This document shows positions 5,785-64,000 of a stretch of DNA of 64,000 nt, piece by piece (the first letter of the stretch is position 1; each line of letters begins with the position of its first letter). The DNA lies in the NCBI GenBank assembly GCA_030427255.1, contig JAUHWY010000014.1:10463-74462 (forward strand). The letters are read 5' to 3'. The translations under genes and the position numbers were made by a program. A model generated the notes under the pieces. It did no database searches, had not been told where the DNA came from, and saw only the letters and a list, made by a program, of their open reading frames with translations. This DNA comes from Bacteroidia bacterium (GTDB lineage Bacteria > Bacteroidota > Bacteroidia > CAIKAF01).

Positions 5785-6100
5785 GCCAAGGCCTTATTGG
5801 TTCTTCTGGCATCGATGACTTTGGCATGCTCAAACTTTTGGCGTGCATGCGCTAGACTCTTCATAAAAGGATTCCCATTGTTTTGTGGCCAGGTCATTAT
5901 AGCCTACATCGTGGTTCATTTGTAGAAAGCTTGAAGATTTTTCAAAAATGCTTTGGGTTCAGCCGTTCCTTGGCTGGATAGACAATCAAATACCAGCTGC
6001 TTGGCTACAGCGGTATAATAGCAATGAAATCAGCCAGTTTAACCACCAAGAGCAAGTTTTAAATGGTCCATTATTAGGATTCTATGCAGCCGGCAATGTT
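5785..6100 (-). pseudogene. Degenerate IS66-family transposase (TnpC) fragment
   Basis: Three frameshift-separated minus-strand pieces: KQLVFDCLSSQGTAEPKAFLKNLQAF (~5996-5925), DVGYND, and LAHARQKFEHAKVIDARRTNKALAFLG (AHARQKF at 5852-5832). They are collinear with the IS66 motifs VFDY..R....P..FL, DGY.GY and C.AHARRKF. Confidence 0.55.
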
Positions 6101-6174
6101 TTACTCACGGTGTTCTTTTGTCCGATTGGGCCAGCATAAAAATTTCGAGAGGGGTCATTTGAGAGGAGAAATAA

Positions 6175-6182
6175 TAACTTTG
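6175..6182 (+). promoter_or_regulatory. Bacteroidota sigma-A -7 element upstream of wbqC
   Basis: TAACTTTG matches TAnnTTTG, ~95 nt before ATG 6276. A TTTG lies at 6158-6161. Confidence 0.45.
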
Positions 6183-6275
6183 CGTTGTTAATCTCTTTTT
6201 TAGACATCAAGTTTTCGACTGAATTGTTTTGCAACTTTAGGGCAAGAGCTAAGGGTTAGGAGGTATTTAGAGCAT

Positions 6276-6956
6276 ATGAGGGTAGCCATATTACAATCAA
6301 ATTACCTTCCTTGGAAGGGGTACTTCGATATTATAAGCAAAGTAGATCTTTTTGTTTTCCATGACGATTTACAGTATACAAAAGGTGATTGGAGAAACAG
6401 AAATAGGGTTCGAGGTCCAAATGGGCTTGTGTGGTTAACAATTCCTTGTGGCACAAGCGAAAAGCGGCTTATTTGTGAAGTTGAAATTATGGATTCAGCT
6501 TGGCAACAAAAACATTGGAACTTGTTAAATCAGTATTACAAAAAGGCGCCCTATTGGAGCAATTATAGGGGCTTTTTCGAATCTTTTTATTTGGGTAATG
6601 TTTGGAATAATTTGAGTGAACTTAATCAGCACTTAATAAAGGAAATTGCAACACAGTTTTTAGGGATTACAACACAGTTTGAAGATTCCAGGAATTATTC
6701 GTTAACCGGTAAGAAAGCAGGTCGGGTAGTAGAATTGCTAAAGAAGACAAATGCCAGCACATATTTATCGGGGCCAGCAGCAAAATCTTATTTGAGTGAG
6801 AAAGATTTGTTGCCTCATGGAATACAATTAGAATGGATGGATTATTCCAACTACCCGGAGTACGACCAAGGGATTAGTCCCTTTATGCATGAAGTTTCCA
6901 TAATTGATGTCTTATTTAATACAGGGCCCAATATGCGCAAATTTGTTATTTCTTAA
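6276..6956 (+). CDS. wbqC: WbqC-family protein
   Basis: AILQSNYLPWKGYFDII, HDDLQYTKGDWRNRNR, YLSGPAAKSYL, EVSIIDVLFN. Confidence 0.92.
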   Translation: MRVAILQSNYLPWKGYFDIISKVDLFVFHDDLQYTKGDWRNRNRVRGPNGLVWLTIPCGTSEKRLICEVEIMDSAWQQKHWNLLNQYYKKAPYWSNYRGFFESFYLGNVWNNLSELNQHLIKEIATQFLGITTQFEDSRNYSLTGKKAGRVVELLKKTNASTYLSGPAAKSYLSEKDLLPHGIQLEWMDYSNYPEYDQGISPFMHEVSIIDVLFNTGPNMRKFVIS

Positions 6957-7169
6957 TTTAAGGTGGTGTATAAAAAGGTGTTTTAAAAGAGAAGGAGATC
7001 TCCTCAAGTGTGCGAAAAATGTCTCAAAACACAAATTTTCCTGTCTATTTCATAGGATAAAGGCACACAAACATTTTTCGCCTTAATTTGTCATGCAAAC
7101 GCAGTGCATCAAGAGAGTGGGGATATTAAATTTTTAATGTAACTATATCAAGAAATACGGTTAGAGTTC

Positions 7170-7859
7170 TCATTTTGTTGGTATTAGGCCTTCATTGGCT
7201 TGATTAAGATAGTGGTTAAAAACCGGATACCCTGGCGCGAAAGAAATGTCTTTATGTAAGCAAAGAGCAAATTCAAAGGGCATGTAATCGTTTCTAAGAA
7301 TAACGTTGTTGCCCAGATTATATGCTAAAGCGAGTATTTTCTCGGGGCTATTGTGAAAAGTGTGTTCATGCCTGTAATCAACTTTGTCGGACAAAAAGTC
7401 AAATGCAAGGCCCTCTTTGGCAATATTCCAAGCTTTAGTCATAACAGCTTCAACAAATTCGAGGTTGTTTCCACTTGGCAATTTGTGGTTAAATATTCCA
7501 GAAGCAAGAACAATGTCAGCAGAATCTATTCTAGTTTCAAGGAAATCGCCTTCAATAAACTTGGCAGAATCGTTGGAATAGATTTCTTGAGCTTTTAGTA
7601 TGAATTCTGGTGTAATATCAATGCCAATGTATTGAAAATGGACATTTACGTTTTTGTAAATAAATTGGAATAAGTCTCCAAATCCACAGCCAATATCGAG
7701 AATGGTTTTATTGGAGAATTGGCTGAAAAAAGAAGTAAGTATTTTAAATCTAATTTCTTGCCGACCGTTTTCCCAACCTAAGGCCTTAGGGGAATAGCCA
7801 AATTTTTTATATGATTCAGTATATTTTTTTATAATGTCTCCTTTATCTAACTCTTTCAT
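7170..7859 (-). CDS. Class I SAM-dependent methyltransferase
   Basis: ILDIGCGFGD motif I. Paralogue of 26191-26844. Confidence 0.88.
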   Translation of the reverse strand: MKELDKGDIIKKYTESYKKFGYSPKALGWENGRQEIRFKILTSFFSQFSNKTILDIGCGFGDLFQFIYKNVNVHFQYIGIDITPEFILKAQEIYSNDSAKFIEGDFLETRIDSADIVLASGIFNHKLPSGNNLEFVEAVMTKAWNIAKEGLAFDFLSDKVDYRHEHTFHNSPEKILALAYNLGNNVILRNDYMPFEFALCLHKDISFAPGYPVFNHYLNQANEGLIPTK

Positions 7860-7873
7860 AACATGGATTTTTA

Positions 7874-8437
7874 TTAGAAGACAGACCCTTCTTTAACGGA
7901 TGTGTTTTCGGGCAGGTTTTGATAGGGCTTCACCACGGAGTTCATTCCTATTTTGCAAAATGATTCTATGGTGGTGTAGCCACCAACAGAAGAGTTTGGG
8001 CTAAAAAAGCAAAAATCTTTAATAGAGTTATGGTGTGTAATGGAAACACTAGGAAAAATAATATTGTGGTTTCCGAGTGATACTTCGGAACCTATATACG
8101 CTCCAGCATGGATTAAGTTACCGTTTCCAAGATTTGCCGATGGCATAATGTGAGAATTTGGATCAATAATGTTGATAAACTTGGCGGACGAACCGGCTAG
8201 ATTTTGTACTATAGAATGCCTAGCGGAGTTATCGCCAACTGCAACAAAAACTAATTGGTTTGAGGAGTGGCAGCGCCGAATCAAATCTGATATTTTGCCG
8301 AGCACCGGTTTTCCAGCAAAGGAGCCTTCTGAATTAAGGTCGTCGAAAAAACCACTGCAGTAAAGACCAGCCCTGTTAGAAATCTCGAGGGCTATTTCGC
8401 CCAAAGTACTTGCACCGAAAATCACAAATTTCACCAT
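7874..8437 (-). CDS. PglD/NeuD-like hexapeptide-repeat acetyltransferase
   Basis: N-terminal IFGAS..G, FVAVGDNSAR, then left-handed beta-helix repeats (LGNGNLI, LGNHNII, IKDFCFF, IESFCKIG). Confidence 0.85.
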   Translation of the reverse strand: MVKFVIFGASTLGEIALEISNRAGLYCSGFFDDLNSEGSFAGKPVLGKISDLIRRCHSSNQLVFVAVGDNSARHSIVQNLAGSSAKFINIIDPNSHIMPSANLGNGNLIHAGAYIGSEVSLGNHNIIFPSVSITHHNSIKDFCFFSPNSSVGGYTTIESFCKIGMNSVVKPYQNLPENTSVKEGSVF

Positions 8438-9114
8438 ACGAATTTATTTTTTATATACTCCTCGAGTCTTTTGTGATAGCTATTTTTCTTGATGGAGTTG
8501 ATTAGCCAGCTTGGTTTAATATTAAAAAAGACGTGTTCTCCTTTTTGGGTTTTGGTGTCAAAAATTAGGAAGGAAGCTTTACCGTCTTTTGTTACGGGAA
8601 AACCAGCAGATCCCGGGTTATAATATTGTGTAGTTTTACCTTTTATTGCCAATGGAAAATGGGTATGGCCAAAGAAAACTACGTCGTAAAGCCCATACAA
8701 AAGGTCTAAACTTTTTAAGTTAAAAAGGTATTTGTTGGCATCAATTCTTGCTTCTTGGCTTAAAAAGTGTGTTAGGAAAATTGAACAGTTTTCGAGGTTA
8801 AGGGACAAATGCTCCGTTGTGTTTAGGAGGTATGTCCGATTAATAGGGGAAATTTGTTTTCGCTGCAAATCGATGGAGTGGTTGGCAGTAAACGAAGTAA
8901 ACTTTAAGGTGGGGTTCAGTAATGCTTCCTCGTGGTCTCCTTGAACAAAATAGGGCTTTTCGAACCTTTGCCAATCGATCACTTCGTTTACTCCCGGGAA
9001 CAGACCTACGGAATCTCCAAGGCAAATCCATTTTTCGACATTGCCTGCGCATTCAATCATTTGATTGAGCGCAGGCCAGTTTGAATGTAAATCTGAATAA
9101 ACTCCAACTAACAT
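8431..9114 (-). CDS. Calcineurin-like metallophosphoesterase (YfcE-like)
   Basis: SDLHSN, GDSVG, GDHE, FGHTH, NPGSAG motifs. Confidence 0.85.
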   Translation of the reverse strand: MLVGVYSDLHSNWPALNQMIECAGNVEKWICLGDSVGLFPGVNEVIDWQRFEKPYFVQGDHEEALLNPTLKFTSFTANHSIDLQRKQISPINRTYLLNTTEHLSLNLENCSIFLTHFLSQEARIDANKYLFNLKSLDLLYGLYDVVFFGHTHFPLAIKGKTTQYYNPGSAGFPVTKDGKASFLIFDTKTQKGEHVFFNIKPSWLINSIKKNSYHKRLEEYIKNKFVW

Positions 9115-9122
9115 ACGTTTTT

Positions 9123-10088
9123 TTAAAAAAAGAATAGCTCTTCCCAGTATCTGGAAAAGCTCCCGGCGCGTTTATTGATTTTAATATTTTGTACTTTTTG
9201 GAGGGCTTCTAAAATCATCATTTCAGGTTCGTTAAAGCCCATTGAGGCCCTTACGAAAGTAGTACTTGACAGTCTTGGGTTTACTTCATAGGCGTAGGGG
9301 ATATTGCCCACTATTTTGAATTGTATGTTGGCTGAATAGTTGGTTCCCAACGCTTCGGCTACATCAATACAGTACTTCTCTAGGTTGCTGTTTAGCAATA
9401 CCCTACCACGGTATGAAAGCCCAAACTTAAGGTCACGTTGAATAATAAGGCAATCTTTAATTTTCCCGCATTTTGAGATGTAGACCCCTGCGGTGTAGTC
9501 ATTCTCGTCGGCTAGGAACTCTTGAAGGACAAAGTAGTTGTGCGGATAGGCGCTTAGAATTGCATCGAGTTGTTTTTGGTTGTTTATTTTGAATGTATCA
9601 GAGTTCGAGACCCCTCGTATAGGCTTTAAGAATAGAGGAAAATCATTATTTAAAGTAAAGTTGTTAATGTCGTTTTTGTTGCCTGCAATAATTGTTTCAG
9701 GGCAAGTGATTCCAACATCTTTGAGTCTTTTCATAGACTCATACTTATCGCTGCAAAGCCTGTATACATCCAGTCCAGAGGCCAAAACATGAACCCCCAT
9801 AGCATTTAGCAGGTCTTTTTTTTGGTGAAGAATGTTGTGTTCGCCTTCCAGTATCGGGAAAATAAATTGGATTTTTCTTTCTCTGATAAGGGTGAGTAGT
9901 GCATCCCAATACCCTTCTTCTTTAATTAAAGGAAGGATTGCTTTATGTACATTTTCAAAATGAAGTCCTGCCGCAAAATGATCAATGTCGGCTGCAATTA
10001 TCTCAATTTTGAGTGTGCTTTTTTTTAAAGATTTAATTATTCCTTGTCCAAGTGGGCTTCCGGCAGCCATTACCAATACGTGGTGCAT
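9123..10088 (-). CDS. ATP-grasp ligase (CarB/PylC-like)
   Basis: CSDKY, LFLKPIRG, LQEFL, YEVNPRLS. Start set at M13 of the track ORF. Confidence 0.85.
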   Translation of the reverse strand: MHHVLVMAAGSPLGQGIIKSLKKSTLKIEIIAADIDHFAAGLHFENVHKAILPLIKEEGYWDALLTLIRERKIQFIFPILEGEHNILHQKKDLLNAMGVHVLASGLDVYRLCSDKYESMKRLKDVGITCPETIIAGNKNDINNFTLNNDFPLFLKPIRGVSNSDTFKINNQKQLDAILSAYPHNYFVLQEFLADENDYTAGVYISKCGKIKDCLIIQRDLKFGLSYRGRVLLNSNLEKYCIDVAEALGTNYSANIQFKIVGNIPYAYEVNPRLSSTTFVRASMGFNEPEMMILEALQKVQNIKINKRAGSFSRYWEELFFF

Positions 10089-10460
10089 TTTGTTGATTTT
10101 ATTAGCCAATTTTAATGATAACAAATTAAACTAAATAAAGGACATGGTTCACAAAATAGTGTTAGATACTGTCCCCAAAAAGTGTGTAAAAAAGGAAAGG
10201 CTTTAATCTTGTTTTGGCAGCTTTACCCTAGCTACTTGATTTGTTAGCCCGTTAATTTTCGTGTTAAATTTCTGATTTAAAGCCGTTTGATCTGTATTAG
10301 GAAACAGCTAAGAAATGGATCAAATAAGTATAAGACTTTTTGATGCTTAATAAGTTTGTTAGAGTTTGAGGTTTCATCTTAAATGGAATATAAACATTCA
10401 AAATTAGAAGCAATAACCTATGACCCATTAACATTAAGAAGCGAAGAAAACCAGTTGAGT

Positions 10461-11744
10461 TTAATGTCCCTTTATAATAACCCTAGCAGCAGTACGCATG
10501 CGTTGTTTTAGGTCGAGTTTTAGTCGGTTGGAAGCGCTGGGCACTACGTGCTTTTCGGCCTCGGTGCCTACTATTTTTTGCATAATCCAAGCGGCCTCGT
10601 CTACGGTTTGGGCATTGAAGTCGTTGCCGTTTAGGTAGAGGCAAGCGTCGTAGAAGCCGGTTTTGGGTATTGCGGTGCGTGTAACTTCCTCGGCAAAAGC
10701 TTTTTGGCGTTGGTTGAGCAGCTGTTCGGTGTATTGGAGTAAGCCGGGGTCGTCTTGGGCAGATTTGCGGATTTTTTCTACGGCATCGTTCCATTCCGCC
10801 TCGTCGTAGACGTAAATATCGCCCACTATTTTTTCCATGAGCTTTTTCCGGTTTACCTTGAGTTCGGCATCGTTGGGGAAAAACAAGTCGCGCGCCTTAA
10901 AGTAAGGTTCGTAAACTACAGGAAACCAGCCTCGGTTGTAGGGGATTTGGGGGTGGTGTGGAATGGAGCTTTGCACATTCAGCGACTTAAAATCCTGAAT
11001 GATTTGGTCGGACATTTTGCGGTAGGTATGGGCCGAGCCGTTGGATTTTCCGGATCGTCCGGAGATATTGAGTGGCGTTCCGGTGAGTACAAATTCAGGG
11101 CAATGTGCTGCCACGGCGTAGCCGGAATAAACGTCCGGCGTGATGGATTCAAAGACCCTACCGGTTTTTGACTTGATTTTTTCTAAGATGTCGCGGTGCA
11201 CGTATCCTCCGTTGTAGAGGTGTGGAAAACGGTTGTAGGAGACGGCGCCCAGGTTGGCGAAACGTTTAAGTAAGCTATGTGAGTCAATCGTTTCGGCGGG
11301 TTTTGGCGTTGGAATGACCAACAGAGGGAAGGTAAAGTAGGAGCGGTCAAAAATGGCGTTGTCGGGCCAAATAAAGGAAGCTTGGACAGACTTAACTACG
11401 GGGAGTCCGGATTCTGTTAGTGCTTTGTGTGCGAGTCTTAGGGCATAGGGCAGTAGTCCGTCGTCGTCGCCGGTATAGCTTAGGTATTGGCCTGAAGCCA
11501 AGGTATAGGCAAATTCCCAGTTTTCGGACATGGCCAGAATGCGTTCTGTGCGCCGATATACCACTTTGGGGTGTTGGAGCAAGTTTTCCATGGACTCCGG
11601 CATGGGGTATTCGGGGTCAGAGTTGTCGGCTACCACTACTTCGAAATCCTCAAAGTCTTGATTAAGTGCCGATTTTAAGGCAAACTCTAAGGTGTGGTAT
11701 CGGTTTCTGGTAGGAATAATGATGCTAAAAAGCGGGCTTTTCAT
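10461..11744 (-). CDS. GT2 glycosyltransferase
   Basis: FSIIIPTRNR, VVVADNSD, NWE, YTGDDD. Confidence 0.88.
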   Translation of the reverse strand: MKSPLFSIIIPTRNRYHTLEFALKSALNQDFEDFEVVVADNSDPEYPMPESMENLLQHPKVVYRRTERILAMSENWEFAYTLASGQYLSYTGDDDGLLPYALRLAHKALTESGLPVVKSVQASFIWPDNAIFDRSYFTFPLLVIPTPKPAETIDSHSLLKRFANLGAVSYNRFPHLYNGGYVHRDILEKIKSKTGRVFESITPDVYSGYAVAAHCPEFVLTGTPLNISGRSGKSNGSAHTYRKMSDQIIQDFKSLNVQSSIPHHPQIPYNRGWFPVVYEPYFKARDLFFPNDAELKVNRKKLMEKIVGDIYVYDEAEWNDAVEKIRKSAQDDPGLLQYTEQLLNQRQKAFAEEVTRTAIPKTGFYDACLYLNGNDFNAQTVDEAAWIMQKIVGTEAEKHVVPSASNRLKLDLKQRMRTAARVIIKGH

Positions 11745-38770: not shown

Positions 38771-38918
38771 GCGCCACGGCGGAGGCCAATTAGCCTGCCG
38801 AAGTGGGGTGCTCAGCAGCCGCATGGGCAAGAGCGACCACAGGAAGCTCCTTGGCTATGCTTGGCTGCGTGCCCACCCTACAAGGCAGCTAATGGCCGGA
38901 GACGGAATAGGCGCCCAA
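38771..38918 (-). repeat. ~150-bp hairpin repeat, copy B1 (inverted, near-identical to B2)
   Basis: Reverse complement aligns end to end with 58805-58953, with about 17 differences over ~148 nt by manual count. Confidence 0.9.
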
Positions 38919-38926
38919 ACCCTAAT

Positions 38927-57802: not shown

Positions 57803-58767
57803 GTGGAGCGCGACTGCTTGTCACCGGAGCTGCCGGATTCATAGCCGGCCGACTAGCCGAACAACTCATTCGGGAGGGAAATCAGGTGATTGGAGTCGAT
57901 GACTTTAGCCGCAACCAAGCGCCCCGCCGTTGGATGGCCCTGCCTTGGCGCGAAACCGTAGACCGCGAAACCTTTTTGGAAGGCATGGAATCCATGCTTT
58001 CCGGGGTGGATGCCGTGTTTCACCTAGGTGCCCGCACCGACACCATGGCTACGGACAAGGAGTTGATCCGACATTTAAACCTAGAGTATAGCCAACGCCT
58101 ATGGGCGGCCTGCACCAAGCTGGGCATTCCCCTGCTGTATGCCTCTTCCGCGGCGGTCTACGGCGACGGCAGTTTGGGGTATTCCGACGATCCGGAGCTC
58201 ATTTCTCAACTGCGCCCCCTGAACCTCTATGGCCAAAGCAAGCTCGATTTTGATGTTTGGGTGCAGGAGCAAAGCCAAGAGCCGCCCTATTATGCCGGAT
58301 TTCGCTTTTTCAACGTCTATGGACCCGGCGAAGGGCACAAGGGCCGCATGGCCTCGGTCATGTGGCATGGCTACAAGCAAATCCTGCAAACCGGAGAAAT
58401 TCAGCTCTTTGCATCCGACAAAGAAGGCATAGCCCACGGCGAACAAAAGCGTGATTTCATTTATGTAGACGATGTAGTGGATTGCCTCATCCGGCAGTGG
58501 AAAAGCCCCGGCGCCTCCGGCATATACAACTTGGGCACCGGCCGCGCCCGCAGCTTCAACGACTTAGCCCGCAGCCTATTCGCCGCCATGCGCGCCAAAG
58601 AGCACCTCCTGTACATCCCCATGCCGGCCAAACTCCAGGGAAAATACCAATATTTCACCCAAGCCGACACCCAAAACCTCCGCAGCAAAGCAGGATATGC
58701 AGCGCCCTTCACCCCCCTCGAAATCGGCGTAGCCCGCTACGTGGACTGGTTAAAAACCGGTGGTTAA
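57799..58767 (+). CDS. hldD: ADP-L-glycero-D-manno-heptose 6-epimerase (extended SDR)
   Basis: TGAAGFI, FHLGARTDT, YASSAAVYG, YGQSK, FFNVYGPGEGHKGRMAS, RDFIYVDD, YQYFTQAD. Confidence 0.9.
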   Translation: MSGARLLVTGAAGFIAGRLAEQLIREGNQVIGVDDFSRNQAPRRWMALPWRETVDRETFLEGMESMLSGVDAVFHLGARTDTMATDKELIRHLNLEYSQRLWAACTKLGIPLLYASSAAVYGDGSLGYSDDPELISQLRPLNLYGQSKLDFDVWVQEQSQEPPYYAGFRFFNVYGPGEGHKGRMASVMWHGYKQILQTGEIQLFASDKEGIAHGEQKRDFIYVDDVVDCLIRQWKSPGASGIYNLGTGRARSFNDLARSLFAAMRAKEHLLYIPMPAKLQGKYQYFTQADTQNLRSKAGYAAPFTPLEIGVARYVDWLKTGG

Positions 58768-58804: not shown

Positions 58805-58953
58805 TTTGGGCGCCTTATCCGTCTCCGGCCATTAGCTGCCTACTAGGGTGGTTACGCAGCCTTGCATGGCCAAGGAGCTTCCTATGGTCGCTCTTGCCCA
58901 TGCGGCTGCTGAGCCACCTAGTACGTCAGGCTAATTGGCCTCCGCCGGGGCGC
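58805..58953 (+). repeat. ~150-bp hairpin repeat, copy B2
   Basis: Inverted near-copy of 38771-38918; stem GGCCATTAGC/GCTAATTGGCC; termini GGGCGCC and CGGGGCGC. Confidence 0.9.
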
Positions 58954-58981
58954 TTAAGCTCCGTGGGGGGGATTTTCCCAT

Positions 58982-59005
58982 AGCCCACGGTTTTAACCGT
59001 GGGCT
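58982..59005. repeat. REP-like perfect palindrome
   Basis: AGCCCACGGTT-TT-AACCGTGGGCT: 11-bp perfect stem with a 2-nt loop. Confidence 0.8.
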
Positions 59006-59014
59006 GTGGGTTAA

Positions 59015-59207
59015 GCAACAATCAACAGGGAAGCAACGCTTCATGTGCTAAGGGACAGTTATGCGAGGCATTTGCCTGAGCCGGGTGCCGATTTGCGGTA
59101 CATTCAAGAGTTGTTGGGGGCACAAGAGCTCACGCACGACAGAGATTTACACCCATGTCATTAGGCTCGCTTTGGAGCAAATTCGTAGTCCATTTGATGA
59201 ACTTTAG
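59015..59207 (+). pseudogene. C-terminal remnant of a tyrosine recombinase (XerD/integron-integrase superfamily)
   Basis: My translation: ATINREATLHVLRDSYARHLPEPGADLRYIQELLG, +1 shift in G5 (59116-59120), HKSSRTTEIYTHVIRLALEQIRSPFDEL*. It retains HxxR, LGH and the catalytic Tyr. An in-frame TAA lies at 59012 and nothing upstream is recognisable. Confidence 0.9.
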
Positions 59208-59320
59208 AGTTTTTTGTGTACATTTCACAAGTAAAATAAACATCAACGGAGACGTACTAACGCAACAGAGGGTTGTGGGATGGATGTTATTTTATGGTTC
59301 TTATAAGTAAGTTAGCAAAT
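59208..59320 (+). other. attI-like primary recombination site 1
   Basis: Lies between the integrase stop and the first cassette. Imperfect IR AAAATAAACATC/GATGTTATTTT. The core GTTAGCAAAT at 59311 is exactly complementary to ATTTGCTAAC at the end of cassette 1. Confidence 0.65.
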
Positions 59321-59345: not shown

Positions 59346-59894
59346 ATGAAAGACGAAAGAATTAAAGGCAAGCTTGGATTTATTTATTTTGAAGATGAAT
59401 CGAACGGAGAAACTAATCTCTACATTAGCCCATTATTGAAAACCGATCAAGATTTTGACAAAAATGGATTTATAAGCCTTTTCGAAGAGACGTTGAAAAA
59501 GGAATATGACTTGCAATCTATTGATAAAGATAGTTTGACATCAATTTGGAGTAACAACGAATTTATTGTTACTGATCAATTTAATTATTTAATGGAATTG
59601 ACAGTTGATAGCGACTTAACGAATATTTTTTCCCTCGCAGATACAAGTGAATTTGAAAATTTTATAAAAATAGAAGCTGATATTGATATTGACGTGCAAG
59701 AAAGTGCTAATAAAAAAAACAAAGAAGAATCAACAACTCCTCCACGGAGATATAATTTACACCCTCATGCAACTTATGTAGGTTGCAGAACAAGAATTTT
59801 CTTAGGTAGATTTAATTCTCAAGAGGCTTGCAATAGAGCAGGTAGGGCTAGATATGGTAGAAATGGGAATTGGTGCTGCTTACTTGATGATTAA
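59346..59894 (+). CDS. Cassette 1: hypothetical protein (acidic N-terminus, short Arg/Cys-rich tail)
   Basis: 182-aa AT-rich ORF bounded by the GTT core at 59311 and AAC at 59906. Confidence 0.7.
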   Translation: MKDERIKGKLGFIYFEDESNGETNLYISPLLKTDQDFDKNGFISLFEETLKKEYDLQSIDKDSLTSIWSNNEFIVTDQFNYLMELTVDSDLTNIFSLADTSEFENFIKIEADIDIDVQESANKKNKEESTTPPRRYNLHPHATYVGCRTRIFLGRFNSQEACNRAGRARYGRNGNWCCLLDD

Positions 59895-59898
59895 AAAC

Positions 59899-60033
59899 AT
59901 TTGCTAACACAGCATATAGCTTATGGCGGGTAAATTGCTAACTGCAAGGTTTTTGCTCCTTAGCCAGCTTTAGTTTCGGTGGACAGGAAATTGCTTCGAA
60001 ACCGCCACAAGCCATATGCAAACCGTTGGGTAG
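59899..60033 (+). repeat. attC-like site 1
   Basis: AAC 59906 to GTT 60025 (119 nt); arms 59912-59929 and 60002-60019 pair at 16/18. Confidence 0.8.
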
Positions 60034-60092
60034 AATACTGTAAGACAACAATCGAAACGAAATTTCGTTAGAATGACTAAATTTGCTACATT

Positions 60093-60389
60093 ATGGAAAT
60101 GATCTTCGATAAGGATAAGGACAGGGTGACTTCAATGCGTAGGAGTGATTATTGGAAAGACTCTATGGTTCATGATTTTTATCTTGACTATTACCAGAGC
60201 TTGTCTTCAAATGAACTCGACAGAGAGTTTAATAAGGACATTAATGCTTTAGCCAAAACGCTAAGTAAAATTTCAGACTCTGAGAGAAAAGCATTTATTG
60301 AAGTTCTTTCAAGATTTATTGAATTCTACCTTGAAAACAAAATTGATAAGGAAATTGATAACTCGATTTTTAAAATACTAAAGTTTTAA
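60093..60389 (+). CDS. Cassette 2 gene a: small acidic hypothetical protein
   Basis: 98-aa ORF, 2 nt from the next gene; TAAATTTG (-7-like) at 60078-60085. Confidence 0.7.
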   Translation: MEMIFDKDKDRVTSMRRSDYWKDSMVHDFYLDYYQSLSSNELDREFNKDINALAKTLSKISDSERKAFIEVLSRFIEFYLENKIDKEIDNSIFKILKF

Positions 60390-60391
60390 CT

Positions 60392-60835
60392 ATGGATGAT
60401 AAAAACAAAAACGAAGATCGAGAATTAGATGAACCTTCTGATAAAAGAGAAGACTCATCTTCAGATGAAATCATTCCTGAAGAAGTTCTTGATGCCATTC
60501 CAGAAGAAGATCGTGGGAAAGTAGCAAGCATCATCAAGCAAACAATGATTTCAGGGGTAATGAGAAGGAGCAATCCTATTGCTGAAAAAATTACTCCTGA
60601 GCATATTTCACAAATTATTTCAAAATCTGACGACCAGGACAAAAGAGACAGGCAAGAAAGAAAAGGCGAAAGGAATTATAACTTGCTATTAATCGTTATT
60701 GCTCTATTATTTGTCGGTTTTCTTATTGTCTTTCTGCAGTCAAATGAAGATTTACTACTAAAGATAGTAATTGGAATTATTTCATTTGTTGGTGGCTTTG
60801 GATTTGGTCAATCTCGTAAGAAAAAGGAAGAGTAA
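60392..60835 (+). CDS. Cassette 2 gene b: membrane protein with two C-terminal TM helices (DUF2335-like architecture)
   Basis: Charged N-terminus, two hydrophobic helices, basic tail RKKKEE. Confidence 0.7.
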   Translation: MDDKNKNEDRELDEPSDKREDSSSDEIIPEEVLDAIPEEDRGKVASIIKQTMISGVMRRSNPIAEKITPEHISQIISKSDDQDKRDRQERKGERNYNLLLIVIALLFVGFLIVFLQSNEDLLLKIVIGIISFVGGFGFGQSRKKKEE

Positions 60836-60842
60836 AGTACGA

Positions 60843-60979
60843 CTGCCCAACAGCACCTAAGAAAGTCTGGGGCGGACATCAGTAAATGCAAGGCTCGTTC
60901 TTCGCGGCTAAATTAGTTGTGGGCTGAAAGGAAGTCGCTCCCAAAAGCCCACGTTTCTTAGCTGCAAACCGTTAGCAAC
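60843..60979 (+). repeat. attC-like site 2
   Basis: AAC 60849 to GTT 60971 (122 nt); arms GCACCTAAGAAA / TTTCTTAGCTGC; ends GCAAACCGTT like site 1. Confidence 0.78.
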
Positions 60980-61021
60980 CAGCTGCTGCAACAGCTTCGT
61001 TCCCCGTTCGATGATTTGTGA
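60971..61021 (+). pseudogene. 3' tail of a second tyrosine recombinase, fused at the GTT core
   Basis: In frame from the GTT: VSNQLLQQLRSPFDDL*, collinear with VIRLALEQIRSPFDEL* of the first remnant. Confidence 0.75.
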
Positions 61022-61130
61022 AAACAAGGTATATTAGCAAAGAGTAAACAAATGAGGAAAACCATCACTTTGCCTACCATTGAGGGTGGATAAATGAGGT
61101 TTAGCCTCATTTGTAAACGAGTTGGGCTAA
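61022..61130 (+). other. attI-like site 2
   Basis: Perfect 10-bp IR ACAAATGAGG (61048-61057) / CCTCATTTGT (61105-61114), direct repeat AAATGAGG at 61092, core GTTGGGCTAA at 61121. Confidence 0.62.
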
Positions 61131-61139
61131 ATGTGAAAA

Positions 61140-61862
61140 ATGAAAATTCCGACAATCATAGGAACCATTGACAGACGAATTTTAATCAACTACCAAGTTG
61201 ACAAAGACGTGCTGACTAAATATTTGCCTGATCCTTTTCGACCAAAACTTGTGAACGACAAGGGAGTTGTTGGAATTTGCTTAATCAGACTAAAAAACAT
61301 TCGACCAAAAGGACTTCCGAAAACTGTTGGAATATCATCTGAAAACGGTGCTCATCGAATTGCAGTTGAGTGGTCAGAAAACGGACAGACCAAAGAAGGT
61401 GTTTTCATTCCCAGACGAGACACATCATCAAAACTGAACTCATTAGCAGGAGGACGAATTTTCCCAGGTATACATCACCTTGCCGCCTTTTCAGTTAACG
61501 AAGAAAATGGAAACTATTCAGTAGAGTTCACGAGTGACGATAAGACCTTTCTGTCAATTAAAGCCAAAGAATCTACTAATTGGAACATAGACAGCGTTTT
61601 TGACAGTTTGGAATGTGCTTCAGACTTCTTTGAGAAAGGTGCAGTAGGTTATTCACCAGACAAAACCGGTGAGACTTTTGACGGACTTGAATTGAAAACC
61701 TATGAATGGAAAGTTAGGCCACTAACAGTTTCGGAAGTAAGGTCGAGTTTCTTTGAAGATGAGACCATTTTTCCAAAAGGGACAGTCAAGTTTGACAATG
61801 CACTCCTGATGAAGAGCATTGAACACGAGTGGAAAAGTTTAAAAGGAATAAAGAAACACTAA
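61140..61862 (+). CDS. Cassette 3: DUF2071 (YqjF-like) family protein
   Basis: RRILINYQVD, GICLIRLKNIRP, SSENGAHRIAVEW, FFEKGAVGYS, FDNALLM. Confidence 0.75.
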   Translation: MKIPTIIGTIDRRILINYQVDKDVLTKYLPDPFRPKLVNDKGVVGICLIRLKNIRPKGLPKTVGISSENGAHRIAVEWSENGQTKEGVFIPRRDTSSKLNSLAGGRIFPGIHHLAAFSVNEENGNYSVEFTSDDKTFLSIKAKESTNWNIDSVFDSLECASDFFEKGAVGYSPDKTGETFDGLELKTYEWKVRPLTVSEVRSSFFEDETIFPKGTVKFDNALLMKSIEHEWKSLKGIKKH

Positions 61863-61995
61863 GACCAACATCGGCTACAGCAAATATGGGTTGACTGCTT
61901 AAAAATGAAGATATTACAACTAAATAAATTTACGGTAAACGGACAAGATAGCGGTTTCAAATCCAGCACTTGCCATAGCTAGGGCCGTTGCAAAC
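61860..61995 (+). repeat. attC-like site 3
   Basis: AAC 61867 to GTT 61987 (120 nt); arms 61873-61892 and 61961-61980 pair at 12/20 Watson-Crick plus wobbles. Confidence 0.72.
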
Positions 61996-62021
61996 AAGCC
62001 TAAAAGACGACACTGCAAGAA

Positions 62022-63572
62022 ATGGAAATTTGGCAATACATAGAAGTTTTAAGACGACCTAACAAGACTTGGTTTTTCTCAAAGGACAACACCGAAAAGA
62101 AGATTAACGCCTTGACTAAAATTGCCAATGACGGTTATCCAAGTCTAATTTGTAGTTTGACGGAATTTCTAAAAGATGACAACAAAGAAATTAGAGAAAC
62201 CACTTGCAAGACAATAACCCACCTGTACAAAAAGATTGACAACAAAAAAGGATATTACGACACTCTCAAACATTGTAGTATTTCAAAAACCGACATTGAT
62301 TTTTATGAAACTAACTTTCCAAAAGAACAATACGTTGTGTTGTTAGCAATCAGTTCATTAAACGGTAGTGGATACATTAGAGAAAAAGCTGTTAAAAAGC
62401 TTTCACAAGTTGACAGTCCAAGAGCCATACAATTTTTAATCTATCGCTTAGCTGATTGGGTTTTACCAGTTCGACAAGCTGCATTAAAAGGAATTGACAA
62501 CTATAAAACAACCAACTACATAGACAGCTTAATTGAAAACCTGCCAATTTTTGAGGGGCTTCAAAAAGTGGAACGGACAGACCTAAGCGGAATATACCAA
62601 GACATTGTTGAGTTCATTGTTTCCACAAACAGGTCGTATGTAATTGACAACTTCAAGAAATATCCAGACAAACTTAGAGTTTTATTAGCTAGGCACATTT
62701 CAAGTTCGCTTAGTGACAATCCACATGAATTAAAACTGTTCTTAACAGACAAGCATTTTTTGATTAGGAGCTTATCAATTCAGCATTTTGACAAACTTGA
62801 ACAAGTAGAAATCGAACAATTACTCCATGACAAATCGGCGAAAGTTCGACTTCAAACACTTTATTCCTTAAAAGCCCAAAACGGTTTTGAAACAATTGCA
62901 AAGAAATTTTTAGCGGACAATTCCTCTACAATAAGACATTTTTCAAGGTTTACGCTTAAACAAACAAACATGGAATTTGCTAAATTTTACAATGACAACT
63001 TACAAGAAAACAAACAATTCATTGGGTCATTAAGCGGACTTGCTGAAACGGAAGGTAAACAGTATTCGGAAACAGTTAAATCATATCTGAAACACAAAAA
63101 AATACGGGTTAAAAAGACAGCGTTTTTAGCTCTTTGCAAACTTGATGAAGAAAGTGCATATGACTTTGCATTTGCCAACCTTGACAGTCCATACTTAGGA
63201 CTTAGAAACGTAATCATTGAATTTCTATCTCGAATTCCAAGACAAGAAGTTTTGACAAAGGCAAGAAGTATTTACGAAACAGGCAATTATGACTCCAAAA
63301 AATCAATGCTAAAACTCTTCAACAAAATCGGCGGTTGGACAGCAATTCCCGACTTGATGATTGGAACAATTGATGAAAATGAGAACATAAGACAATTGGC
63401 ATTTGGCTATTTACTAATTTGGAGAACACGAGCAGTGAGTCTATTCTCAACACCAAAACAAGGGGAAATTGAAAGAGCAAAACAGATTTTCAGCTTCGTA
63501 AACGAGACACATCAGGACAAACAATATTTTAAAACTAACCCACTAGATGGACTTGACTTTTACTTCAAATAA
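62022..63572 (+). CDS. Cassette 4: HEAT-repeat (alpha-solenoid) protein
   Basis: Repeated units D..KEIRE, GYIREKAV, WVLPVRQAA, DKHFLIRS, SAKVRLQ, KIRVKKTA, DENENIRQ. Confidence 0.75.
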   Translation: MEIWQYIEVLRRPNKTWFFSKDNTEKKINALTKIANDGYPSLICSLTEFLKDDNKEIRETTCKTITHLYKKIDNKKGYYDTLKHCSISKTDIDFYETNFPKEQYVVLLAISSLNGSGYIREKAVKKLSQVDSPRAIQFLIYRLADWVLPVRQAALKGIDNYKTTNYIDSLIENLPIFEGLQKVERTDLSGIYQDIVEFIVSTNRSYVIDNFKKYPDKLRVLLARHISSSLSDNPHELKLFLTDKHFLIRSLSIQHFDKLEQVEIEQLLHDKSAKVRLQTLYSLKAQNGFETIAKKFLADNSSTIRHFSRFTLKQTNMEFAKFYNDNLQENKQFIGSLSGLAETEGKQYSETVKSYLKHKKIRVKKTAFLALCKLDEESAYDFAFANLDSPYLGLRNVIIEFLSRIPRQEVLTKARSIYETGNYDSKKSMLKLFNKIGGWTAIPDLMIGTIDENENIRQLAFGYLLIWRTRAVSLFSTPKQGEIERAKQIFSFVNETHQDKQYFKTNPLDGLDFYFK

Positions 63573-63582
63573 CAGAAGGCCA

Positions 63583-63717
63583 GCTTGTAACACGGGTTTT
63601 GCAAAAATCGCGGTTCAGTGCTTAAATCAAGCTTTGTGCTTTTATCAAAGTTCGTGCTTGGTTGACAGTGAAGTGCTTCGAAATACCCTACGTTTCATAC
63701 CTGAGAACGTTAAACCT
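63583..63717 (+). repeat. attC-like site 4
   Basis: AAC 63589 to GTT 63709 (120 nt); loop motif GACAGTGAAGTGCTTCGAAA shared with site 1 (GACAGGAAATTGCTTCGAAA); arms pair poorly. Confidence 0.68.
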
Positions 63718-63731
63718 AAGAACAAACGACA

Positions 63732-64000
63732 ATGAGGATAGATTATAAAATTGACGAAAACGATTTCTTGACACACCAACTTTTTGTGGCGTCAAAATCT
63801 GATCGCATCAAAAAGAAAAGGCAAAGCAGTAAAGTGGTTTGGCCATTAATTTGCGTTGCCCTTGGACTTTTATATATCATTCTGGGCAAAGTTTCAGGGT
63901 CGATACTATTTTTTATTACTGGACTTCTTTGGTTTTTCATTTACCCCATTTGGGAAAGATGGTACTATATCAAGCATTATAAGGGGTTCATTAAAGATAA
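63732..64000 (+). CDS. Cassette 5 (partial; not in the ORF track): YcxB-like membrane protein
   Basis: My translation: MRIDYKIDENDFLTHQLFVASKSDRIKKKRQSSKVVWPLICVALGLLYIILGKVSGSILFFITGLLWFFIYPIWERWYYIKHYKGFIKD, open to the window end. It starts 23 nt after the GTT at 63709. Confidence 0.75.
   Translation, partial: MRIDYKIDENDFLTHQLFVASKSDRIKKKRQSSKVVWPLICVALGLLYIILGKVSGSILFFITGLLWFFIYPIWERWYYIKHYKGFIKD

Follow-up and report, generated by a model that had tools for sequence, protein, structure and literature searches.

Earlier work on the secondary sites of integrons was reportedly carried out by Francia and by Recchia and Hall. In the 'inverted' group of Treponema integrons, intI is co-oriented with the cassettes. 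The integrase IntI1 recombines attC sites with GWT sites in genomes (10.1101/2022.09.11.507474). Within class 1 and class 2 arrays, Delta-attI cassettes place attI fragments inside the array, and these fragments have been shown to be recombination-proficient (Gonzales Machuca et al., Sci Rep 2026, PMC12901181). Archaeal integrons have their attI downstream of intI (PMC9668308), and clusters of attC sites without an integrase are known as CALINs (Cury et al. 2016, PMC4889954). For Bacteroidetes, a single complete integron, that of Salinibacter, was reported with IntegronFinder 2.0 (PMC9024848).

We describe here a locus in which, as read from its sequence, a complete attC is joined at its crossover, G/TT (the slash marks the crossover point), to the last 16 codons of an integrase gene and to the attI that follows them. 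The window (the whole stretch of DNA analysed, 64,000 nucleotides, or 64 kb) comes from an uncultured Bacteroidota genome, and from ~59.0 kb to its end it is an integron-like cassette array. GC content is ~47-50% up to ~59.0 kb and ~36% from there to the window end. The genes to the left are ordinary ones for Bacteroidota, among them those for a Por_Secre_tail protein, an M42 peptidase and, with its end at 58767, an ADP-heptose-type epimerase. The best match to this epimerase is at most 52% identical. With no close relative of it, and none of the host in which the pre-fusion state might be read, synteny gives no view of how the locus looked ancestrally; the exact epimerase protein occurs solely on one Logan contig, which stops 63 nt past the gene.

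A GC-rich, self-complementary element of 149 nt (58805-58953, and 38771-38919 on the minus strand; 88.6% identity, fold z -7.8) belongs to a palindromic repeat of the host, of REP/MITE-like type. One copy lies just before the start of the array, and a public contig of the same locus terminates inside that copy. Scans of the 64-kb window for tRNA genes and Rfam families gave no match. A second low-GC stretch (6000-11000, GC 0.36-0.41) encodes WbqC-like, methyltransferase, PglD-like acetyltransferase, metallophosphoesterase, ATP-grasp and GT2 proteins; it was ruled out as an array, its gene content being that of a polysaccharide (sugar-modification) cluster.

Cassette ORFs all lie on the plus strand, one or two per cassette, with imperfect hairpins between them that start with ..AAC and end with ..GTT. 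The features of the array are as follows.

59021..59207, plus strand: remnant 1, the C-terminal ~60 codons of a tyrosine recombinase, reading ..ATLHVLRDSYARHL..LRYIQELLG, then HKSSRTTEIYTHVIRLALEQIRSPFDEL and stop
59208..59318, plus strand: attI1, core TTATAAGTAAG/TTAGCAAAT, crossover G59311/T59312
59312..60025, plus strand: cassette 1, ORF 59346-59894 (182 aa, no Pfam match) with attC1
59899-60031, plus strand: attC1, a hairpin with R' GTTGGGT (covariance match 59904-60031, 39.3 bits, E 1.9e-06)
60026..60971, plus strand: cassette 2, ORFs 60093-60389 and 60392-60835 with attC2
60845-60977, plus strand: attC2, R'' GCCCAAC at 60845-60851, ending at G60971 (72.5 bits, E 1.7e-13)
60971..61021, plus strand: tail 2, the last 16 codons and stop of a second integrase allele, VSNQLLQQLRSPFDDL and stop
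61022..61127, plus strand: attI2, imperfect hairpin 61048-61114, core TGTAAACGAG/TTGGGC, crossover G61121/T61122
61122..61987, plus strand: cassette 3, ORF 61140-61862 (DUF2071) with attC3
61866-61993 (match), plus strand: attC3, R'' GACCAAC at 61863-61869, R' GTTGCAA from 61987 (15.6 bits, E 0.2, weak)
61988..63709, plus strand: cassette 4, ORF 62022-63572 (HEAT-repeat protein) with attC4
63585-63715 (match), plus strand: attC4, R'' GCTTGTAAC at 63583-63591, R' GTTAAAC from 63709 (57.2 bits, E 3e-10)
63710..64000, plus strand: sequence at the start of cassette 5, which continues past the window

Cassette 2 is a two-gene cassette, with abutting ORFs of 98 aa and 147 aa (overlap region TAACTATG), neither of which has a Pfam match. 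The integrase pieces are host-like in GC (remnant 1 0.49 and tail 2 0.51, host 0.485) and the cassettes are not (attI and cassettes 0.33-0.39).

The attC scores come from a covariance model of ten attC sites, all taken from other genomes, in which 9 of 13 stem pairs covary and one unpaired base is conserved. Run against the 64 kb, the model gives four matches, all on the plus strand and all between cassettes, with attC2 scoring best. The conserved unpaired base (a C at column 12 of alignment A2) interrupts the attC stem (GCA-C-CTA versus TAG-CTGC) and resembles the extrahelical bases of canonical attC sites, whereas the integrase here lacks the domain that reads such bases in IntI. The site attC2 belongs to a class of ~125 nt (AAC-AGCACCTA..TAGCTGC-AAACC-GTT) that is also found behind the integrase family at 12 other loci. 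A Brumimicrobium locus (L023) carries a textbook array past its attI, each R'' being the reverse complement of the preceding R' (GTTATCAGC/GCTGATAAC, GTTATAGGGC/GCCCTATAAC, etc.). This complement rule can be followed along the window, pairing GTTAGCAAAT of attI1 with R'' ATTTGCTAAC of attC1 (59899-59908), R' GTTGGGT of attC1 with R'' GCCCAAC of attC2, GTTGGGC of attI2 with R'' GACCAAC of attC3, and R' GTTGCAAAC of attC3 with R'' GCTTGTAAC of attC4. Of the properties by which integrons are recognized, the window array has an attI next to integrase sequence with insertion at G/TT, attC inverted repeats that obey the R''/R' rule, and mostly one-ORF cassettes in the same orientation.

Relatives of remnant 1, members of the IntI/XerA-like tyrosine recombinase family that serves the array, are abundant in Bacteroidota, with a few in Ignavibacteriota, Clostridia and archaeal MAGs; a description of this Bacteroidota family was not found in the searchable literature. 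Full-length members are 350-400 aa, and the two that were searched against Pfam match PF13495 and PF00589. Four full-length homologues score 216.2-222.5 bits to NF040815 ("XerA/integron integrase," cut-off 220), two above and two below the cut-off. Scores to TIGR02249 (cut-off 265) are 194-217 bits for L003, L010, L015 and L020, in two stretches that skip profile positions ~180-253, and residues 181-242 of VchIntIA (2A3V) align to just 20 residues of the homologue. The IntI-specific additional domain (patch III) is absent from the full-length relatives, and neither remnant in the window includes the region. Because the integrase lacks this domain, domain-based integron tools would not call the system complete. 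The system is nonetheless integron-like, its integrase being co-oriented with the cassettes and its attI downstream of the gene. At most loci an attI motif, ..TATAAAC(G/A)A/GTTRNN.., lies ~100 nt past the stop codon and is preceded by inverted or direct boxes; counted with at most 2 mismatches, it stands 75-132 nt past the stop at 17 of 45 homologous loci (0.7% in shuffles).

Several further features of the family were observed in passing. Its integrases (L003, L010, L015, L017, L020, L023 and others) have an extra N-terminal extension of ~95 aa, and in many Bacteroidota they adjoin a conserved attI and arrays of attC cassettes. Past the catalytic tyrosine, many homologues (L084, L087, L179, L180, L182, L190, L195, L197 and others) have YTY or YTD instead of YTH, and several of these genes appear otherwise uninterrupted. 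In L023 (9400-9560), a GIY-YIG-like small ORF (..REKYLKSGNGKIYIKSRL..), recognized by eye only, stands in place of the 5' half of the integrase gene. Public contigs (L002, L004, L007, L022, L027, L028 and others) often end 50-1000 nt past the integrase stop, which suggests that assemblies break at attI or the first cassettes through population polymorphism or repeats.

Remnant 1 holds a +1 frameshift within the G-run at 59116-59120, and tblastn recovers it in two pieces (59021-59119 and 59118-59204). Its tail reads ..EIYTHVIRLALEQIRSPFDEL and stop, the last 16 residues being VIRLALEQIRSPFDEL followed by the stop (59157-59207), with GTC as its Val codon. The best database fragment is 82% identical to it, and the 14-nt core of attI1 is identical to that of the L023 attI. 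A near-perfect 16-bp hairpin at 58977-59015 (CCCATAGCCCACGGTT/AACCGTGGGCTGTGGG) adjoins the left end of remnant 1, with GTTAAGC across the boundary; this left end (hairpin ..GGGCTGTGG/GTTAAGCAAC, ~59010) could be another G/TT junction.

The junction between attC2 and tail 2 presents an unusual case of one sequence serving as two things. The covariance alignment of attC2 ends ..AAACC GUUAGCA at 60977, and its R' GTTAGCA is the consensus of the model (CGUUAgca), so that GTTAGCA is, as the initial annotation had supposed, the consensus core of this attC/attI family. The same seven bases are the first seven of tail 2, and the GTT at 60971-60973 is at once the closing element of attC2 and the first codon of the tail. 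The sequence GTTAGCAACC at the attC2 end has no complementary R'' downstream and reads as integrase codons. Likewise, TTAGCAACC.. reads as integrase codons, and the next R'', GACCAAC, fits the GTTGGGC of attI2 and not GTTAGCA. No integrase homology was found upstream of the attC2 GTT. On the sequence evidence, the join lies at G/TT, to within a C-G-T-T microhomology; the complement rule, the covariance alignment and a sister contig with another cassette past the same G agree in placing it at the crossover point originally proposed. Its make-up is that of an attC x secondary-site product, with attC intact to its G, non-att TT.. beyond, and no matching R''.

Logan contigs from two other sequencing runs, L095 (ERR3428543) and L094 (SRR33375160), span the junction, and L093 and L095 reproduce the pieces. 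Three independent assemblies have the junction, and it is no assembly error. L094 runs through cassette 2, attC2, tail 2 and attI2 and then, past the same G, into a cassette other than that of the window (..ATAAACGAG/TTGTGCAT.., GTTGTGCAT..) with its own attC R'', ATGCACAAC; the first cassette past the attI2 G therefore differs between the two. The two sequences are identical over 850 nt through the tail and then differ by 9 SNPs in the last 75 nt of attI2. The SNP cluster (window 61049-61112, L094 890-955) puts the haplotype boundary inside attI2 and not at G/TT. Such clustering points to related attI copies having exchanged sequence by homologous recombination, more than to simple cassette insertion.

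Tail 2 (GTT AGC AAC CAG CTG CTG CAA CAG CTT CGT TCC CCG TTC GAT GAT TTG TGA) gives an ungapped alignment with the end of remnant 1, in which 9 of 16 residues and 26 of 51 bases are identical. A PSSM was built from 30 distinct tails of intact homologues, the lowest of which scores 28.6 bits. The score of tail 2, 33.7 bits, falls in the range of these training tails; that of the remnant 1 tail is 24.3. By comparison, the best of 2,000,000 random 16-mers reaches 12.7 bits, and the best of the 2302 stop-terminated 16-mers of the window, the two tails excepted, reaches 12.2 bits. With 33.7 bits against a random maximum of 12.7, the 16-codon match noticed in the initial annotation is significant. 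A tblastn search of the 64 kb with a full-length homologue matches 59021-59204 and 60971-61018 and nothing else.

The 16 codons, then, are an integrase tail, and one of another allele than remnant 1, followed by its own attI and an inserted cassette. That two alleles are involved follows from the 26 of 51 bases shared by the tails and from the comparison of attI1 with attI2, which share 54% with many gaps. An intact intI2 allele with this tail or this attI was searched for and not found, so the unrecombined substrate is unseen; the closest relatives in that search are 82% identical over 39 nt (L184) and, for a 40-aa hybrid query, 85% identical. The top matches were all short (56-102 aa), an observation dropped as a biological signal, as a scoring bias toward short targets may be expected to explain part of it.

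The attI2 core, TGTAAACGAG/TTGGGC, lies 100 nt past the stop of tail 2 and has 1 mismatch to the family motif TATAAACGAGTT; the hairpin of attI2 has a fold z of -3.9. Cassette 3 begins at the G/TT of attI2, and its attC3 opens with GACCAAC, the complement of GTTGG(G/T)C. With the family motif at the family distance from the stop, the second attI-like site is real.

Scans for comparable junctions used a 16-codon tail preceded by a non-His codon, a pattern that sees only breaks at the Val codon; it yielded two matches in genomes and nine in metagenomes. Five Ferruginibacter-type contigs (L081, L082, L086, L089, L091) share the junction attC..CCCCAAACC/GTT TCT ACC.. (extended, attC..CAGCCCCAAACC/GTT TCT ACC AAT..; tail VSTNRIQQIKSPFDDL and stop) with an attI after it. 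Their first cassettes are of five kinds and their upstream cassettes of four, and overlaps between contigs place two of the modules in a single array, ~5.5 kb from each other. The 51-nt tail of this type and ~36 nt beyond it are essentially identical in the five contexts (one substitution, in L089), and the attC and distal attI flanks are 7-11% different; there may be a constraint on the DNA of the tail, which could, for instance, belong to attI. When GTT was exchanged for GTA in a control scan, 25 matches came up, mostly genes with YTY or YTD instead of YTH. The isolate Wandonia haliotis JCM 16083 (L183) has attC..GCAGAACC/GTA AGT.. (read further, attC..CTACTGCAGAACC/GTA AGT CAA..) with tail and attI inside an array. 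Junctions of this kind therefore exist elsewhere, with GTT TCT in the Ferruginibacter type and GTA AGT in W. haliotis, and the proposal that they should be seen beyond this one locus is borne out.

Among all the truncated copies collected, those of Flavobacterium aureirubrum J3 present a related arrangement, a remnant of 44 codons plus attI in at least four copies (L196) and at least three (L182). The copies lie at 1116-6800 of L196 and, on the minus strand, at 567, 2488 and 3528 of L182, with YTD rather than YTH in most. The same cassette-end element of ~90 nt (..GGTTAGAGGTG/TTTACTTGAG..) precedes each copy and, where the sequence was read, a different cassette follows each. It seems that this module acts as an inter-cassette site.

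Orphan tails that begin at the Val codon with no attC before them, beside ordinary or AT-rich DNA, occur in L088, L090, L181, L193, L194 and L198; L177 differs in that its break precedes the Val codon by ~5 nt. On the minus strand of L085 (~800-1860), the right end of an IS110-family element meets an orphan tail exactly at the Val codon, with ACAGTTCTTT at both putative IS ends. Four candidates were ruled out as junctions: L075, a 14-aa relic that has neither attC nor attI; L083, where the remnant is decayed and carries indels; and L084 and L087, which appear uninterrupted (~25 upstream codons read) and have YTY for YTH. Truncated copies make up 46 of the 106 C-terminal matches, and the family has remnants of many lengths. 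Judging from these sequences, modules of an integrase 3' remnant plus attI recur within arrays, and the break is not confined to one codon or to GTTAGC.

The initial annotation held that the integrase gene itself carries GTTAGC at these codons. As a general property of the gene this fails: across 53 homologues the Val codon is mostly GTA, with GTT in 10 and GTT-AGY in 3, and exact GTTAGCA is found in none of 45 near-full-length genes, the recombined allele of the window being the one with the exact core. Nor is GTTAGC a requirement, since other junctions at the same codon have GTT TCT and GTA AGT. Sequences near the core (GT plus at most 1 mismatch to GTTAGCA) occur at the Val codon in 11 of 45 genes and at any other position in 3 or fewer. 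An avoidance of GTT at the Val codon (8 of 42, against 257 of 842 elsewhere in the same genes) is not significant (p 0.12). A hot spot at the Val codon is plausible from these counts; given that the scans see Val-codon breaks alone, and given orphan tails without attC and with GTA, such a hot spot is inseparable from ascertainment bias. A resemblance of the codons before Val to the left half of attI was weak by eye and was dropped.

We consider it probable that tail 2 and attI2 were joined to attC2 by site-specific recombination, the attC reacting with a secondary site that lay in the 3' end of an integrase gene. The partners would be a folded attC2, cut at G/TT, and a secondary site GTT AGC A in the Val-Ser-Asn codons of a second integrase allele, whose bases there spell the consensus right half-site GTTAGCA. 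Enzyme and strand exchange are proposed by analogy with the attC x attI and attC x attG reactions of IntI1, an analogy that may fail in detail, the family being without the IntI-specific domain thought necessary for attC recombination. Two topologies could give the product: (a) deletion between tandem integrons, or (b) release of a circle (tail-attI-cassettes-attC) from one integron, followed by capture in another. By either, the donor integrase would lose its last 16 codons and an attI would land within an array. The break would fall past the catalytic Tyr (..IYTH/VS..), and the donor would keep its catalytic residues and lose its C-terminal segment. The equivalent segment of related recombinases makes contact with the neighbouring subunit. 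By this comparison, the loss of 16 codons is likely to have inactivated the donor integrase.

The best surviving account of how the pieces came together, which we hold tentatively as a real possibility short of a probable one, is that the Val site recombined with a downstream attC and freed a circle, which then entered an array or genomic secondary sites. One and the same tail-attI module recurs in at least four contexts, twice in one array, and insertion of attC-bearing circles at genomic sites is a known activity of IntI1. The orphan tails listed above directly adjoin chromosomal DNA, as expected of a circle inserted there; however, they could be plain deletions, and the L177 break falls ~5 nt short of the codon. 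Neither the circle nor the reciprocal product (a ..YTH integrase fused to a cassette) was observed. Circle capture, if true, would seed integrase-less arrays that start with a 16-codon tail.

The initial annotation preferred a fusion of two arrays, which in its in-cis form would have attC2 of one tandem integron recombine with the GTTAGCA of the next, with deletion of the intervening DNA. This is somewhat doubtful. It yields exactly the observed junction, and the host-like GC of the integrase pieces, beside the low GC of the cassettes, fits long-resident genes. On the other hand, no tandem integrase pair occurs among family loci with full-length integrase genes, what lies closely spaced in L182 and L196 is copies of a 44-codon remnant, a movable unit better accounts for the L081-L091 modules with their multiple contexts, and the nearest genome is just 52% identical in the flanking epimerase, leaving the pre-fusion state out of view. 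What holds of the array-to-array fusion is the secondary-site crossover at G/TT with the tail of another allele; fusion as such is not singled out, as the same junction would come from tandem deletion or from circle capture. Modules in multiple contexts or in duplicate, together with orphan tails at chromosomal borders, make us lean slightly to circle capture over tandem deletion.

It is improbable that an illegitimate deletion or decay merely happened to end at these bases. C-terminal remnants of many lengths are common, and some are interrupted by other elements (the IS110 element of L085; by eye, the GIY-YIG-like ORF of L023), as decay would have it, but the first base of tail 2 is exactly the crossover G of a complete attC with a high score, and two further independent attC junctions show the same coincidence. 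An assembly chimera, or a chance ORF resembling an integrase tail, is effectively refuted by the three independent assemblies, the PSSM score and the attI motif at the right distance, even though the attC 3' end with GTTAGCA offers short repeats prone to mis-joining and ERR3428543 contigs break at 61021-61034.

Recombination of attC2 with a secondary site in the integrase gene, our preferred reading of the junction, would make it natural evidence for G/TT cutting by a little-studied recombinase family, and would mean that secondary-site recombination can strike the integrase gene itself. It would offer a route to integrase loss with a usable attI kept, to arrays of mixed integrons, and to an internal attI whose cassettes vary between contigs. 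A more speculative extension, which we put forward as a conjecture on the doubtful side, is that the 3' end of the integrase gene in this family is a recurrent built-in target (at the Val after YTH or at other sites). Recombination with attC would then cut the integrase and release or fuse attI-bearing units, and platforms of tail, attI and cassettes would move, multiply within arrays and seed integrase-less arrays, all by a recombinase without the domain thought essential for attC recombination. A widespread integron-like system in Bacteroidota whose integrase lacks the IntI-specific domain bears on the evolution of single-stranded attC recognition.

Among known systems, the attC x attG reaction of IntI1 (Loot et al., 10.1101/2022.09.11.507474) is alike in that a complete attC is joined at G/TT to non-att DNA with G-T/W-T, giving a product without a matching half-site. 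Here, by contrast, recombination would have struck an integrase gene at its 3' end, with the gene's own attI ~150 nt further downstream, and for this reason the entire attI is carried along; the recombinase family is without the IntI-specific domain and its activity is putative. Delta-attI cassettes (PMC12901181) are alike in having attI-derived sequence that ends at the crossover inside a cassette array. In them, however, the attI fragment (mostly 14-18 nt, in one case 244 nt) replaces the attC of the cassette, whereas here the preceding attC2 is complete and is the best-scoring site, and is followed by 16 integrase codons and a full attI of ~100 nt; the sequences are unrelated to the attI1 and attI2 of mobile integrons. 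Archaeal and Treponema integrons share with this locus an integrase that reads toward the array with attI just past its 3' end, the layout that makes capture of a tail plus attI possible, but theirs carry the additional domain of IntI and the family here does not. CALINs are alike in that the window array has integrase debris only; theirs is a descriptive definition, whereas the debris here shows a concrete route to integrase loss with attI kept. Secondary-site events and internal attI sites are thus known from integrons, and what is new is a probable target within the integrase gene that carries attI along, in a little-described Bacteroidota family.
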